Virus record (IMG/VR): IMGVR_UViG_2706794692_000008
Origin: a virus
Taxonomy: Duplodnaviria > Heunggongvirae > Uroviricota > Caudoviricetes
Strand: one strand, 5' to 3'
Length of the DNA: 4,506 bases
The notes under the pieces were generated by a model that did not search any database, was not told the DNA's origin, and saw only the letters and a program-made list of their open reading frames with translations. Position numbers and translations under genes: made by a program. Shown piece after piece: positions 1 through 4,506 of the stretch. The first letter of the stretch is position 1. Every line of letters begins with the position of its first letter.

Positions 1-69
1 CTTTAGAGTAACGTTGGGTTTTTCTGCTCATTATTAGCTCCTTCTGATGCCATTCTATTTCAGGAAGGA

Positions 70-772
70 GTGTCCGTTAAACTCAGGCTACCTCAGGTTA
101 TTCGCTTCTGGGCATGGGCGGATCAACAAATGATAGACGGTAATGCAGATTGTAACGCTCGCGGCGTTACAAAAAGTGCAATAGATCGCATCACTTTTAT
201 GTCTGGTTTTGCTGATGCGTTAATTCAGGTTGGATGGCTGGTCGAAAATGACGGAGGGCTTTCTCTACCTAACTTTGAACGTCATAACGGAAAAAGCTCT
301 AAAAAAAACGGGCGGTTACAAACGAGCGAGTAACAAAAATACGCGAACTGAAACGAAAAGGTAACGCTGCCAGCGTTACACAAACGGATCAAAAAGCGTT
401 ACCAGAGGAAGAGGAAGAGGAAGATCTAAATACTGATCTCCCCCTCGCCAAAAACGAGCGTCTAAAAAATTCGAGCCGGAGGCTATTGAGCTGCCCGATT
501 GGTTGCCGGAAACACTCTGGCATGAGTGGGTCCGGTTCAGACAGGCATTGCGAAAACCGATTCGAACGGAGCAGGGCGCTAACGGGGCGATACGGGAACT
601 GGAAAAATTCCGTCAGCAGGGTTTTACACCTGAGCAGGTGATTCGACACAGCATCGCCAATGAATACCAGGGCCTGTTCGCGCCGAAAGGTGTTCGGCCT
701 GAGACGTTGCTCCGACAGGTTAACACCGTCTCGTTGCCGGACAGTGCGATCCCGCCAGGCTTCAGGGGGTAA
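70..772 (+). pseudogene. DnaT-like phage replication/primosomal protein with interrupted reading frame (frame 1 70-333, frame 3 303-641 with no start, frame 2 437-772)
   Basis: GTG at 70 sits directly after AGGAAGGAG (62-69), and all three frames carry stops within nt 4-37, so the 5' end is uncertain. The last segment ends ...VNTVSLPDSAIPPGFRG, which matches my recollection of the E. coli DnaT C-terminus (...NTVSEPDSQIPPGFRG). The three overlapping open frames join into one coherent protein if one A is added to the A8 run (301-308) and one to the A6 run (464-469). The middle frame encodes a basic stretch (NERVTKIRELKRKGNAASVT) and an EEEEEE linker from (GAGGAA)3 at 405-422. Its stop (770-772) lies 6 nt before the dnaC-like start, the same adjacency as chromosomal dnaT-dnaC. 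Confidence 0.6.
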
Positions 773-778
773 CGGACC

Positions 779-1525
779 ATGAAAAATATTGCGACAGGCG
801 GCGTTCTGGAACGCATCCGCCGACTGACCCCGCCACATGTAACCGCCCCATTCAGAACGGTAGCGGAGTGGCGCGAGTGGCAACTTGCTGAAGGCCAGAA
901 ACGTAGCGAGGAGATCAACCGCCTGAATCGCCAGTTGCGGGTGGAAAAAATTCTGAATCGCTCAGGCATCCAGCCGTTGCACCGTAAATGCTCGTTTGCG
1001 AATTACCAGGTGCAGAACGACGGCCAGCGATACGCGTTAAGCCAGGCGAAATCCATCGCCGATGAACTGATGACCGGGTGTACAAATTTTGCGTTCAGCG
1101 GAAAACCTGGTACCGGGAAGAATCACTTAGCGGCAGCTATCGGGAATCGCCTGCTGAAAGACGGTCAGACAGTGATTGTGGTTACCGTGGCTGATGTTAT
1201 GAGCGCCCTGCACGCCAGCTATGACGACGGGCAGTCAGGCGAAAAATTTTTGCGGGAGCTGTGCGAAGTGGATCTGCTGGTTCTTGATGAAATTGGCATT
1301 CAGCGCGAGACGAAAAACGAGCAGGTGGTGCTGCACCAGATTGTTGATCGCCGGACAGCGTCGATGCGCAGCGTGGGGATGCTGACAAACCTGAACTATG
1401 AGGTGATGAAAACATTGCTCGGCGAGCGGGTGATGGATCGCATGGTCATGAACGGCGGGCGCTGGGTGAATTTTAACTGGGAGAGCTGGCGTCCGAATGT
1501 TAGCCATTCGAGGGTTGTTAAGTAG
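779..1525 (+). CDS. DnaC-like AAA+ helicase loader (phage replication protein)
   Basis: 248-aa ORF with ATG at 779 and a G-rich SD-like stretch (765-769). Walker A is FSGKPGTGKNHLAAAIG (G108 at nt 1100) and Walker B is LLVLDEIG. The overall pattern (CSFANY..., MLTNLN, LGERVMDRM, NFNW) closely matches E. coli DnaC as I recall it. Resembles the DnaC-like gene of Rac-type prophages (cf. ydaV), but the symbol is not asserted. Confidence 0.9.
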   Translation: MKNIATGGVLERIRRLTPPHVTAPFRTVAEWREWQLAEGQKRSEEINRLNRQLRVEKILNRSGIQPLHRKCSFANYQVQNDGQRYALSQAKSIADELMTGCTNFAFSGKPGTGKNHLAAAIGNRLLKDGQTVIVVTVADVMSALHASYDDGQSGEKFLRELCEVDLLVLDEIGIQRETKNEQVVLHQIVDRRTASMRSVGMLTNLNYEVMKTLLGERVMDRMVMNGGRWVNFNWESWRPNVSHSRVVK

Positions 1526-1539
1526 TTTCAGGAGGATTT

Positions 1540-1962
1540 ATGGCGAAACCTTTTACTCCCGAACAGCGGGAAGAACTGAAGACGCGAATTGTGGAACTCG
1601 TGCATCAGGACGGTCGGGTCACGATTCGGCAGTTGTCAGATGAAACAGGTATCAGTCGTGCGTCTGTCGGTCGCTTATGCATAGAACTGGTCGCAAGTGG
1701 TGATGTATATAATTCTGGCTACGGCTTATTCCCGTCTGAACAGGCTCGCAAGGACTGGCAAAGCGCCCGCAAAAAACTCTCGAGAGTAAAGGTGAGGAAA
1801 CCGGTTGTTGTTGATCCGGACCTTATCTGGTCATTACCTGACGGAGAAATACGCCGCTACGACAGGCGCCTGAATATAATCTGTCGCGAGTGCCGGAAGA
1901 GCGAAGCTATGCAGCGTGTACTGGCTTTCTATCAGGGTAATTTTCAGGAGGCGATACTGTGA
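1540..1962 (+). CDS. hypothetical protein, N-terminal winged-helix/HTH-like segment
   Basis: 140-aa ORF with AGGAGG (1530-1535) 4 nt before ATG 1540, starting 15 nt after the dnaC-like stop. The segment RVTIRQLSDETGISRASVGRLCIELVASGDV looks like a helix-turn-helix. Family not recognised. Confidence 0.6.
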   Translation: MAKPFTPEQREELKTRIVELVHQDGRVTIRQLSDETGISRASVGRLCIELVASGDVYNSGYGLFPSEQARKDWQSARKKLSRVKVRKPVVVDPDLIWSLPDGEIRRYDRRLNIICRECRKSEAMQRVLAFYQGNFQEAIL

Positions 1963-2019
1963 ATGAAATTAGCTATCAGGCTTCAATTACCGCTGGCATT
2001 CGCATCAAAGGAGAGGAGC

Positions 2020-2376
2020 ATGGAAATAAAACCAGAAGATGAGTTAAGCAATATCGTTTTATTTCCGGTAAAAGAGGATGACCCTCGTAATCAGGTTAAT
2101 TTTCTTTATGAGCCATCGGAAAGACCATATTGCCATCACGCCTCTGTACGGGTTGACGAAAAAGAGCGTCAGGTCCGCTGTAAAATCTGCGGTGCGGTTG
2201 TGGAGCCGTTTGACTGGATGCTCTCTGTGGCAAAAAGAGAAACCAGACTGGCAGATGATGTAAGGCTATTGCGCCAGGAGGAACAGGAAAGGCGGAGAAA
2301 TATAGAAAAGCTGATACAGATTGAGCGTAACGCGAAAGCGCGGATACGCAGGGCGACAAAATCCAGAACTGAATAA
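2020..2376 (+). CDS. hypothetical Cys/His-containing protein with basic coiled-coil-like C-terminus (alternative start ATG 1963)
   Basis: ATG 2020 is preceded by AGGAG (2009-2013) with a 6-nt spacer. The in-frame ATG 1963 directly abuts the TGA (1960-1962) of the upstream gene, with AGGAGG (1946-1951) 11 nt upstream, so a 137-aa form is possible. Contains YCHH...(17 aa)...CKICG, then a Glu/Arg-rich tail (RLLRQEEQERRRNIEKLIQIERNAKARIRR). Confidence 0.5.
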   Translation: MEIKPEDELSNIVLFPVKEDDPRNQVNFLYEPSERPYCHHASVRVDEKERQVRCKICGAVVEPFDWMLSVAKRETRLADDVRLLRQEEQERRRNIEKLIQIERNAKARIRRATKSRTE

Positions 2377-2413
2377 TTAAATTTAGCACTGTTAAAAATT
2401 TAATCCTTAACCG

Positions 2414-2444
2414 GAGGGATTTCTGCACCCTCAAATCATCAGGA
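2414..2444 (+). promoter_or_regulatory. candidate RNA hairpin with possible H-type pseudoknot, upstream of the queH-like gene
   Basis: Stem GAGGG (2414-2418) pairs with CCCUC (2428-2432) around a 9-nt loop AUUUCUGCA. Loop UUCUG (2421-2425) can pair with CAGGA (2440-2444) across an A-rich linker AAAUCAU. The downstream strand overlaps an AGGAG that has no start codon after it. Confidence 0.15.
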
Positions 2445-2523
2445 GACCACCCGAAAGGGCGGGGAGCAGTCACACATCTGTTTCCGATAGCCCCGTTCTA
2501 ATGCTACACTCTTTGATATTTTT

Positions 2524-3210
2524 ATGACCCCAATAAACATATTTATGACAGTTGCTGATTTCAAACGGCCCAAATTGGAGCTCCCAAACGGGGCAAACAA
2601 ACTACTACTGCACTCTTGCTGTGCTCCATGTTCCGGTGAGGTGATGGAGGCGCTTCAGGCCTCGGGAATCGACTACACCATCTTTTTCTACAACCCGAAC
2701 ATTCATCCTCAGAAAGAGTATTTAATTCGTAAGGATGAGAATATTCGCTTTGCTGAACAACACGGCGTGCCGTTTATTGATGCTGATTACGACACAGACA
2801 ACTGGTTTGAACGAGCCAAAGGAATGGAATGGGAGCCCGAACGAGGGATCCGTTGCACCATGTGTTTTGACATGCGTTTTGAGCGGACAGCGCTGTACGC
2901 CGCTGAAAATGGTTTCAGTGTGATCAGCAGTTCACTGGGCATTTCACGCTGGAAAAATATGCAGCAGGTTAACGACTGTGGGCGGCGAGCCGTCGCGCAT
3001 TATCCGGGCATGGTGTACTGGGATTATAACTGGCGCAAGCAGGGCGGCTCGTCCCGTATGATTGAAATCAGCAAGCGCGAAAAATTCTATCAGCAGGAAT
3101 ATTGTGGCTGTGTGTATTCTCTGCGCGATACCAATCTACACCGCAAATCTCAGGGACGCCCTCTTATCAAAATTGGTCAACTCCACTACGGTAAAGAAGA
3201 GAAGGAGTGA
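2524..3210 (+). CDS. queH: QueH-like (DUF208 family) epoxyqueuosine reductase
   Basis: 228-aa ORF with the [11 protein letters not shown] motif (Cys codons 2617-2631), the hallmark I associate with DUF208/QueH, plus further conserved-looking Cys pairs (CTMCFD, YCGCVY). No clear SD before ATG 2524; an in-frame ATG at 2545 is an alternative start. Possible weak promoter TTCCGA (2482-2487), 17 nt, TACACT (2505-2510). Confidence 0.75.
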
Positions 3211-3231
3211 TTTTATGGGGCACCTTTCTGA

Positions 3232-3261
3232 TTGATTTCATATTGGCGAGGTAAGTAGAAT
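3232..3261 (+). promoter_or_regulatory. candidate sigma70 promoter reading into the masked region
   Basis: TTGATT (3232-3237), 18-nt spacer, TAGAAT (3256-3261). Predicted transcription start near 3268, just before the hairpin at 3280-3316. Confidence 0.35.
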
Positions 3262-3355
3262 GACTGCGGGTGCTTGAGGCTATCTGCTTCAGGCATGAAC
3301 ACCAAAAGGCAGATAGAGAAAAGCCCCAGTTAACATTACGCGTCCGGCAAGACGC

Positions 3356-3605
3356 NNNNNNNNNNNNNNNNNNNNNNNNNNNNNNNNNNNNNNNNNNNNN
3401 NNNNNNNNNNNNNNNNNNNNNNNNNNNNNNNNNNNNNNNNNNNNNNNNNNNNNNNNNNNNNNNNNNNNNNNNNNNNNNNNNNNNNNNNNNNNNNNNNNNN
3501 NNNNNNNNNNNNNNNNNNNNNNNNNNNNNNNNNNNNNNNNNNNNNNNNNNNNNNNNNNNNNNNNNNNNNNNNNNNNNNNNNNNNNNNNNNNNNNNNNNNN
3601 NNNNN
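3356..3605. other. run of 250 N (masked or unresolved sequence)
   Basis: Directly visible. Content and true length are unknown; any ORF drawn across it is uninterpretable. Confidence 1.
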
Positions 3606-3629
3606 CATCCTCAACGCACCCGCACTTAA

Positions 3630-3672
3630 CCCGCCCATCGCTGTGATCTCTCAGCGTTTCGGCGGGTTTTTT
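3630..3672 (+). terminator. intrinsic (Rho-independent) terminator
   Basis: CCCGCC (3630-3635) pairs with GGCGGG (3661-3666), with an inner helix CGCUG (3639-3643) / CAGCG (3652-3656), followed by T6 (3667-3672). The reverse complement has no T-run, so it is + oriented. Confidence 0.6.
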
Positions 3673-3692
3673 GTTGTTTATTTCCGGTGAAT

Positions 3693-3720
3693 TTGATTCG
3701 CGCACCTTCGCAGATAGAAT
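3693..3720 (+). promoter_or_regulatory. candidate sigma70 promoter for the 95-aa ORF and DUF1367-like gene
   Basis: TTGATT (3693-3698), 16-nt spacer, TAGAAT (3715-3720), the same hexamers as the promoter candidate at 3232-3261. It lies about 80 nt upstream of ATG 3802. Confidence 0.4.
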
Positions 3721-3801
3721 CGACTCACTTAAGTAGCGCGCAGGGAGAAGAGGGATGGACCCCGAACAGGGGAGAGCTATTTATCTGGAAGGATTCTGAA
3801 G

Positions 3802-4089
3802 ATGAAAATCGAAGAATTGCGTGAAATTTTTAGTGAAAATGGCCTCTATGCTGTGCGCGTTGAGAATGGAGCGATTGTCAGCCATTGCCGCATTAGATGT
3901 TTGCAATCTCAACAAAGGAAGAGCGGTGCTGTGTTATTTTATTTTTGTAATGGACTTCTGACGGACGGTTTTATTTTGCGTGAGGACGAATTTGTCACAT
4001 CATTACGGGTTTTGAAAGAGATTGGTTTTAAGGCTGGTTTTCTGCTTTTGCTGAAGAATAAACTCATCTACAATCTTGAGCAGGATTGA
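3802..4089 (+). CDS. hypothetical protein (95 aa), AT-rich
   Basis: ATG 3802 is preceded by GGAAGGA (3787-3793) with an 8-nt spacer. Composition is noticeably more AT-rich than the replication genes. The stop TGA (4087-4089) is 38 nt upstream of the next gene's probable start. No family recognised. Confidence 0.5.
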   Translation: MKIEELREIFSENGLYAVRVENGAIVSHCRIRCLQSQQRKSGAVLFYFCNGLLTDGFILREDEFVTSLRVLKEIGFKAGFLLLLKNKLIYNLEQD

Positions 4090-4127
4090 ACTCCTGCTGT
4101 GTAACACCGTGCCACCGGAGAAAGCCG

Positions 4128-4481
4128 ATGGCACATATACAACTGGTCAAACAAACCTCTTCCGGATTACTTCTCCCGGCGACGCCGGAGAGTTGCGATT
4201 TTCTGCATCAAATCAAAATAGGTGAGTGGATACACGCAGACTTTAAGCGTGTGTGTAACTACGCATTCCACAAGCGTTTTTTCAAACTCCTGCAACTGGG
4301 TTTCGATTACTGGACTCCGGTCGGTGGGGCGATCACGCCTCGCGAACGAAAACTGGTGTCCGGTTTCGTTGATTACCTGTGTGAATCAGTAGGCCGGGAA
4401 CATACGCCAGCTCTGAGCGAAGCCGCAGAGCAATTGAGGTGTACTGGCAATAGCGGACACTACCATTTGTTCTTTTTTTAA
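4128..4481 (+). CDS. DUF1367-like phage nin-region protein (tentative family call)
   Basis: ATG 4128 is preceded by GGAG (4117-4120) with a 7-nt spacer; the track's longer ORF begins at TTG 4086. The N-terminal pattern (HIQLVKQTSSGLLLPATPESCDFLHQIKIGEWIHADFKRVCNYAFHKRFFKLLQLGFDYW) resembles what I recall of DUF1367 proteins in lambdoid nin regions. The stop TAA (4479-4481) follows a T7 run, 25 nt from the window end. Confidence 0.55.
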   Translation: MAHIQLVKQTSSGLLLPATPESCDFLHQIKIGEWIHADFKRVCNYAFHKRFFKLLQLGFDYWTPVGGAITPRERKLVSGFVDYLCESVGREHTPALSEAAEQLRCTGNSGHYHLFFF

Positions 4482-4506
4482 GCAGCCATCTGATGATATT
4501 TTTCCC

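Follow-up and report, generated by a model that had tools for sequence, protein, structure and literature searches.

The window, a stretch of 4,506 bases from the virus record IMGVR_UViG_2706794692_000008 (IMG/VR), represents the early-right region of a Rac-type lambdoid prophage, and its genes all lie on the plus strand. The interval from 2377 to 4089 had been singled out by an initial annotation as a cargo-like segment between the replication genes and the DUF1367-like nin gene, holding a queH-like gene, a masked unit, a terminator, a second promoter and an AT-rich open reading frame (ORF). All of these features were recovered at or close to their assigned positions (Table 1). They belong to three elements: queH, which encodes a protein of the QueH epoxyqueuosine reductase family; a hokD-type hok/mok/sok locus, the core of which probably constitutes the masked unit; and a rem-family ORF. 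An unmasked copy of the window (99.5% identity) is present in Escherichia coli FDAARGOS_944 (contig L003), within a full prophage located beside ybhA/modC.

Table 1. Features of the window, with the frequency of modules among loci anchored on DUF1367.
Feature	Position	Strand	Evidence or remark	Occurrence
IS600 end truncating the ydaU-like replication initiator gene	1..94	-	occurs in both orientations in related contigs	
ydaU-like initiator fragment	95-772	+	5' end cut by IS600	
ydaV, DnaC-like helicase loader	779-1525	+		
DUF977 gene	1540-1962	+	'Ren-like' family in PHROGs	
Zn-ribbon-like ORF	2020-2376 (also given from 1963)	+	phrog_1621, E 3e-56, labelled unknown function	
Conserved linker module	~2372-2462			40-47/80
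Non-coding linker (~60 nt)	2401..2462	+	two small hairpins, GAGGG/CCCTC and CCGCCC-GAAA-GGGCGG; AGGAG motif	
queH cassette, 743 bp	2474..3216	+	present/absent unit among relatives	6/80 (5/64)
Predicted extended -10 promoter element of queH, TGCTACACT	2502..2510	+		
queH, epoxyqueuosine reductase, 221 aa, intact	2545..3210	+	PF02677; RefSeq name QueH	
Remnant MGHLSD* (six codons)	3215..3235	+	marks right edge of cassette; comparison upstream of hok 5' end, 62 distinct loci	
hok/sok module	3232-3674			56-66/80 (55/64)
hok mRNA promoter, TTGATT-18-TAGAAT	3232..3261	+	consensus scan; -10 region conserved in most hok loci	
hokD-type hok/mok mRNA	3268..3674	+	RF01794 leader, masked core, fbi, terminator	
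hok 5' tac stem-loop	3268-3327	+	Rfam RF01794	
Putative antisense Sok RNA, 3' hairpin and U-run	3318..3355	-	5' part in mask	
Masked core (run of N)	3356-3605		mok/hok coding region in sister contigs	
fbi element, CCTCAACGCACCC	3609-3621	+		
hok intrinsic terminator	3628-3674	+	folding free energy (dG) -24.2 kcal/mol, z -5.65, followed by U6	
hok terminator tail, promoter-like site and rem 5' half	~3645-3870			22-26/80
Promoter-like site upstream of rem, TTGATT-16-TAGAAT	3693..3720	+	consensus level only	
rem-family ORF, 95 aa	3802..4089	+	PF27490 (precomputed Pfam match, exact protein); phrog_340 'unknown function'	
rem 3' half	~3870-4089			9/80
DUF1367 (NinB/Orf-like) nin gene, 5' half; conserved right flank	4128..4434	+	PF07105, phrog_319	80/80 (from 4128)
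Second IS600 copy, end	4435..4506	-	DUF1367 gene cut at 4434/4435	

The interval was compared with two sets of 80 IMG/VR loci, one anchored on DUF1367 and the other on QueH, on which marker proteins and DNA homology were mapped; frequencies out of 64 refer to those loci of the DUF1367 set in which at least 2.6 kb of sequence was available upstream. The space between the DUF977 and DUF1367 genes occurred in 56 distinct versions in the 64 loci possessing both flanks, at lengths of 1.7-4.9 kb. At least 80% of the window was covered in only 2 of 5,426 complete E. coli genomes; of these genomes, 995 carried queH, 959 rem-like DNA, 1,324 this DUF1367 allele and 1,511 the linker. The position is thus a hypervariable cargo slot, as had been proposed. 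In relatives, the same slot harbors IetA/IetS, RmrT/RmrA (RosmerTA), a type II restriction endonuclease with a C5-methylase, a cll/sce7726 protein or a NACHT NTPase, the first four of which are recognised by PADLOC, and in avian pathogenic E. coli (APEC) O1 a Doc toxin comes after queH and hok. No empty site, with the linker joined straight to hok, was found among the related loci, as the gap between linker and hok always measured 0.8-3.2 kb.

Sharp breakpoints were located at 2462/2474, ~3216 and ~3870. As the frequencies of queH (5/64), hok/sok (55/64) and rem (8/64) differ widely, the interval consists of three separate mosaic modules and not, as the cargo-like segment of the initial annotation might imply, of one cargo unit. 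The alignment to related prophages that it had recommended did define conserved flanks around variable content, with the linker on the left and hok/sok together with DUF1367 on the right. Its placement of the left end directly behind the last replication-associated gene could not be maintained: the ORF at 2020-2376 occurs in only 15-17 of the 80 DUF1367-anchored loci and is itself a variable accessory ORF, not a member of a proven replication module, and therefore the variable tract begins near 1960-1990 and not at 2377.

Residues 27-201 of QueH matched positions 1-174 of the 175-position PF02677 profile (E 1.9e-65), the score of 220.6 bits lying far over the cut-off of 23.5. The cysteine motifs CCAPx, RCxxC and YCGC, by which the family binds its metal centres, were conserved in an alignment with QueH of Thermotoga maritima (PDB 7lc5), which shares the full-length domain and differs in having CCAPD in place of the CCAPC of the window protein. 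The start codon at 2545 is conserved across genera. In PHROGs, the phage QueH family (phrog_3217) is labelled 'unknown function', and its profile begins at residue 41 of a 228-aa ORF (start 2524), past the CCAPC motif, which points to gene calls that are too short in phage records and to a gap in annotation.

The edges of the queH cassette are precise. On the left, 61 alignments begin exactly at 2474, 11 nt past the linker hairpin, and different cassettes appear to have been joined immediately 3' of the conserved ~60-nt linker, which ends in this GAAA-loop hairpin. On the right, MGHLSD* is what is left of the 3' end of a small hydrophobic ORF (...AIYCLVIVLMDHLSD*), which in loci lacking queH lies immediately ahead of the hok promoter; its stop codon overlaps the hok -35 hexamer. 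In 68 of 74 loci, phage-borne queH followed DUF977 or the Zn-ribbon ORF at a distance of at most 400 nt, and in 64 of 78 it preceded hok by at most 700 nt; sequence type 131 (ST131) provides an example of this position. The gene occurred without hok in 14 of 78 loci and without rem in 59 of 75, and hok was mostly found without queH. In E. coli A10 (NZ_CP028764.1, L243 3957-4677), a queH cassette of 91% identity and with almost identical boundaries is located in a different mosaic of the same slot, where hok is lacking and a TehB-like/DUF1971 gene lies on the opposite strand, indicating that the cassette moved or was exchanged as a unit.

Among the 80 best-matching loci of a one-genome-per-species collection, a phage context of queH was restricted to Escherichia and Shigella. 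Homologues with 78-93% identity occur in Enterobacter, Scandinavium, Kluyvera, Erwinia, Serratia, Pectobacterium, Rahnella and others; in the same 80-locus set, none of the phage marker genes tested was present around the homologues outside Escherichia and Shigella, and the three nearest chromosomal loci, which were inspected, had ordinary metabolic and regulatory neighbours. DNA homology to the chromosomal queH of Enterobacter and Scandinavium was limited to the stretch from 2481/2497 through 3214/3217. Upstream of seven queH genes from Escherichia, Enterobacter, Scandinavium and Kluyvera, TGCTAC was invariant while the surrounding sequence diverged, the extended -10 reading TGCTACACT or TGCTACAAT across genera; a two-hexamer consensus scan of the window did not report this element. 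Because homology ends at the cassette edges and both TGCTAC and the ATG at 2545 are invariant across genera, we conclude that a chromosomal queH of Enterobacteriaceae was probably captured with its own promoter, the native 5' flank taken along, conserved extended -10 included, amounting to some 50-70 nt.

The masked unit appears to be the core of a hokD-type hok/mok/sok locus, the complete architecture of which we infer from contigs with identical flanks. In the window, positions 1-58 of the RF01794 model are visible and reach 53.9 bits against a gathering score of 59, the match being cut by the mask. Contig L007 shows 100% identity to the window at either side of the mask; in this contig, RF01794 scored 117 bits over positions 1-157 and was followed by a 51-aa Hok ORF. 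A Hok of 51 aa (PF01848) is also present in the identical-flank contigs L246-L251 and in L003, and RefSeq names the gene at this locus hokD. The mask comprises 250 N, the length not being preserved, as all contigs with identical flanks (L007, L246, L249) and also L003 have 291 nt there. The end of the hok -10 lies 7 nt ahead of position 1 of the Rfam leader model (3268), and the terminator that the initial annotation had assigned to the masked unit was confirmed. For the L007 transcript, the minimum-energy fold (z -8.78) pairs GGGUGCUUGAGG (3268-3279) with CCUCAACGCACCC (3609-3621), both of which are unmasked in the window. On the reverse strand, a predicted Sok hairpin (TTAATGTTAAGCGTC..GACGCGTAATGTTAA) is followed by GGGGCTTTT; its promoter matched at 7 of 12 positions only and was not reported by the consensus scan. 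As judged from the contigs with identical flanks, the locus shares the RF01794 leader, the 51-aa Hok (PF01848), a Mok-annotated in-frame upstream extension, the tac-fbi pairing of 5' and 3' ends and the intrinsic terminator with hok/sok of plasmid R1, hokD/relF of Qin and hokW/sokW of 933W, and differs from these loci in its masked core and weak Sok promoter. A tRNA gene was considered for the masked unit and rejected, as none was found and the flanks are those of hok. In the slot, hok/sok is a nearly fixed resident and near-core backbone.

We regard rem as a small, AT-rich predicted gene with a promoter-like site, itself of mosaic structure: its 5' half and the promoter-like region occur in ~26 of the 80 DUF1367-anchored loci, and its 3' half in 9. 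At its C-terminus it carries the tail LLLLKNKLIYNLEQD in place of the common ...GFSAFEDE, and a protein identical to Rem of the window is named from Shigella sonnei. No terminator follows rem in the window. A homologue search gave matches in Escherichia and Shigella only, all annotated as hypothetical. An AlphaFold model based on 15 sequences was of the alpha/beta type with moderate confidence (predicted local distance difference test score, pLDDT, 71.7), and a Foldseek search of the model against PDB and BFVD returned nothing below E 0.1. Phage Rac shows the same order of hok, rem and DUF1367 as the window.

In the lineage of the window, the prophage is a dead remnant truncated by IS600. The prophage fragment 95-4434 is flanked by two IS600 copies, which truncate the 5' end of ydaU and the 3' end of DUF1367, and everything from the 3' half of DUF1367 onward is lacking (DUF1364, Q, lysis and structural genes). 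Compared with E. coli FDAARGOS_944, the ydaU-like fragment has a frameshift, with 2 additional nt in an A-run (~301-308), and a 10-nt deletion (~439), so that the replication module is dead here. In Shigella, the queH-hok-rem block is intact inside the IS600-gutted remnant, which occurs in hundreds of assemblies, and the fusion ORF of DUF1367 and the insertion sequence is indexed in 521 blocks of the assembly collection. Same-junction contigs show the remnant adjoining an integrase fragment and modC.

One alternative holds that the segment is ordinary backbone of the early-right operon (replication to nin to Q), conserved and co-transcribed from the phage early promoter and hence not cargo. 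The presence of hok/sok in 55 of 64 related loci would fit, as would the co-orientation of all genes with the operon, the prophage-like guanine-plus-cytosine (GC) content of queH and hok, the absence of a terminator after queH or rem and promoter matches at chance level. For queH (5/64) and rem (8/64), this alternative is largely refuted by the presence/absence data, and it holds only for hok/sok; a window arrangement found in 2 of 5,426 genomes, 56 slot versions in 64 loci, sharp cassette breakpoints, a strong intrinsic terminator inside the tract and a queH promoter element conserved with the chromosomal homologues all argue against it. As an account of the whole segment, we consider it rather unlikely. 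The initial annotation would have given up the cargo interpretation if gene content were conserved in most related phages with core-like composition; such conservation was found for near-core hok/sok and not for queH and rem.

The slot in relatives has the properties of an anti-phage defence hotspot (IetA/IetS, RmrT/RmrA, restriction endonuclease II, cll, NACHT, Doc). It resembles the defence hotspots of P2/P4-like prophages, in which conserved flanks enclose interchangeable cargo (IetAS, RosmerTA, restriction-modification, NACHT), but differs in phage family and position, and in the window it is without a recognised defence system except hok/sok. Plasmid R1 hok/sok reportedly excludes phage T4. 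The bona fide defence systems in the same slot of relatives would be in line with a second alternative, in which queH, hok/sok and rem form or belong to a defence island and QueH was recruited by analogy with the QueC-like QatC or with 7-deazaguanine Dpd systems; QueC-family enzymes are part of the Qat defence system (PMC13639016). However, PADLOC recognised none of the window's proteins: there was no match for QueH, Hok, Rem, the Zn-ribbon ORF or DUF1367, and DUF977 gave two sub-threshold matches only (Csa3, E 0.0017; mad1, E 0.0067). QueH is also full length, retains its catalytic cysteines and is 78-93% identical to the chromosomal copies of other Enterobacterales, and the three genes are not co-inherited. 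A defence island of this kind therefore appears highly unlikely. The suggestion of defence-related cargo in the initial annotation thus stands for the slot in relatives and is unsupported for the window's own genes apart from hok/sok, which is a candidate in view of the reported T4 exclusion.

A third alternative, to which we give very little credence, is that queH serves the phage itself, by 7-deazaguanine modification of phage DNA or by tuning the decoding of NAU/NAC codons in lytic growth. Phages are known to employ the preQ0 pathway to modify DNA (PMC6884629, PMC10516641), and tRNA genes lie downstream of Q in this prophage family. Against this, the annotation of the 25-kb prophage in the near-identical L003 includes no DpdA/TGT-like gene and none for preQ0 synthesis, for which reason the role in DNA modification was rejected, and the substrate of QueH is tRNA-bound epoxyqueuosine, which is no intermediate of the known DNA pathways. 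Moreover, the cassette has been kept intact in an IS600-truncated remnant without late genes, which argues for a host-side or selfish benefit rather than a lytic one.

Taken together, the interval is in our judgement probably an accessory-gene (moron) tract in the early-right region of a Rac-type lambdoid prophage, composed of independent mosaic modules in a hypervariable slot. With the morons and accessory slots of lambdoid phages it shares presence or absence between conserved flanks (for queH and rem at the same position in close relatives, with breakpoints at 2474 and 3216), sharp joints at a conserved intergenic linker, potential expression in the lysogen from own promoters, and defence and toxin-antitoxin systems in the same slot of relatives. 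It differs in that queH is without a terminator or deviant composition and that the tract mixes near-fixed hok/sok with rare inserts. In a lysogen, the phage early promoter would be repressed and the modules would depend on their own promoters, so that queH could be expressed independently. Its product would act without cobalamin and reduce the epoxyqueuosine at position 34 of tRNA-Asp, -Asn, -His and -Tyr to queuosine. De novo synthesis of cobalamin is beyond E. coli, and QueG depends on this cofactor, which QueH does not require. QueH may thus back up the QueG of the host and provide the lysogen with B12-independent queuosine. Within the QueH (DUF208) family, the copy in the window stands out as prophage-borne, its host having a QueG of its own. 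Queuosine synthesis is completed by either QueG or QueH (PMC9508795). The hok/sok locus would penalise loss of the element by post-segregational killing. Such a role would fit the near-fixed state of the locus in the slot and could explain why the queH-hok-rem block has survived in the IS600-gutted remnant; hok/sok may also abort infection by other phages.

Several points weigh against this interpretation. Gene identities, cassette boundaries, presence/absence frequencies, the variability of the slot and the defence systems of relatives are observations, whereas expression in the lysogen, activity and benefit of QueH and the role of hok/sok are predictions, and the benefit of QueH is conjectural, as E. 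coli already has QueG; we know of no phenotype that distinguishes epoxyqueuosine from queuosine. Two classical marks of a moron are missing from queH, an own terminator, none being present after the gene in the window, and deviant base composition: its GC content of 49.2% compares with 49% for the prophage and gives no sign of foreign origin. The GC profile, which the initial annotation had proposed to compute across the window, deviates for rem alone (39.6%) and not for the hok locus (52.7%). Similarly, its statement that each unit has its own regulatory signals applies fully to hok, which has promoter and terminator, and in part to queH, with a conserved extended -10 only, and to rem, with a consensus-level promoter only. 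The promoter consensus scan of the window yielded 4 matches against 4.6 expected from shuffled sequence, which is not above chance, and support therefore rests on position for hok and on conservation for queH. All genes are co-oriented with the early-right operon and would also be read from the phage early promoter upon induction. In addition, the hok core is masked in the window, its intactness being deduced from the identical-flank contigs, and the 80 DUF1367-anchored loci are the best 80 matches to one DUF1367 allele and not independent samples, so that the fractions are rough.

We tentatively suggest, as a possibility well short of probable, that prophage QueH is a lysogenic-conversion gene for the translation apparatus, rendering queuosine B12-independent in ~18% of E. 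coli and in Shigella, and that selection on queH, and not hok addiction alone, explains its retention in the remnant. In Shigella, queuosine is required for full translation of virulence genes. If QueH is active, a common cargo gene of temperate phages would lift the vitamin B12 requirement from a universal tRNA modification, and B12-independent queuosine would represent a form of lysogenic conversion that has been too little appreciated. Hok/sok, QueH and Rem belong to known families, the first two already named at this locus by RefSeq, and the tract, made of known parts, behaves as lambdoid mosaicism predicts. A search of the literature on prophage queH returned nothing relevant, and the literature searched did not appear to describe that ~18% of E. 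coli genomes have a tRNA-modification reductase in the form of a discrete cassette with its own promoter, that queH has a fixed position after a conserved linker or that it is retained in Shigella remnants. A cassette-exchange site of Rac-type prophages is hereby mapped, bounded by the linker at its left and by hok/sok and DUF1367 at its right, and provides a simple anchor for mining defence and accessory genes over thousands of E. coli genomes.

The linker (consensus TCCTTAACCGGAGGG..GCACCCTCA..CAGGAGGCCGCCCGAAAGGGCGG) showed 28 invariant columns across 30 distinct copies, with unrelated surrounding sequence on both sides. It was found at 1,798 places in the 1,511 carrier genomes (28%), about one per carrier, and is annotated nowhere; further copies lie at L003 14316-14376, L244 3501-3561 and L245 3501-3561. 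This pattern suggests that the linker is the left recombination boundary of an exchangeable cassette site. Over the 30 copies, 96% of the cells in the hairpins were paired and covariation was not above that of shuffles, the RNA structure thus being unproven; the copy in the window has a G-to-A change in hairpin 2 and folds no better than shuffled sequence (z 0.05), and an Rfam scan of the window gave nothing matching at the linker. In most copies an ATG follows 3-14 nt past the linker. In the Stx phage ArgO145 and in mEp460, the linker sits in another operon, in the early-left accessory region, with the next annotated gene 7-10 nt after it. The linker could be a translation-initiation region with a hairpin between Shine-Dalgarno motif and start codon; equally it could act as an RNA processing or stability signal, or be a mere boundary sequence guiding homologous exchange. 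The record PP818812.1 ('Actinobacillus phage vB_Apl-pPE4') contains an E. coli-type sok and the linker at ~95% identity, and its host assignment or purity may be open to question.

With respect to the remaining features of the window, the Zn-ribbon-like ORF showed a weak match to the TFIIB Zn-ribbon, below the Pfam cut-off, and the DUF1367 fragment matched PF07105 over profile positions 1-102 of 198 (E 9.8e-47). The complete IS600 element was 99.5% identical to an annotated 'IS3-like element IS600 family transposase', and in contig L246 the IS600 transposase genes are on the minus strand. Arrays of tRNA genes were located 3' of the Q-like antiterminator in relatives, specifying Ile-Arg-Thr-Gly (L003 17713-18023) and Thr-Gly (L004 10088-10241), with no queuosine-modified tRNA among them. 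In the IMG/VR contig L032 (7646-12603), three successive DUF1367 copies ~2.2 kb apart are situated downstream of queH-hok-rem, the first two each followed by DUF1364, which may reflect a tandem duplication or an assembly artefact.

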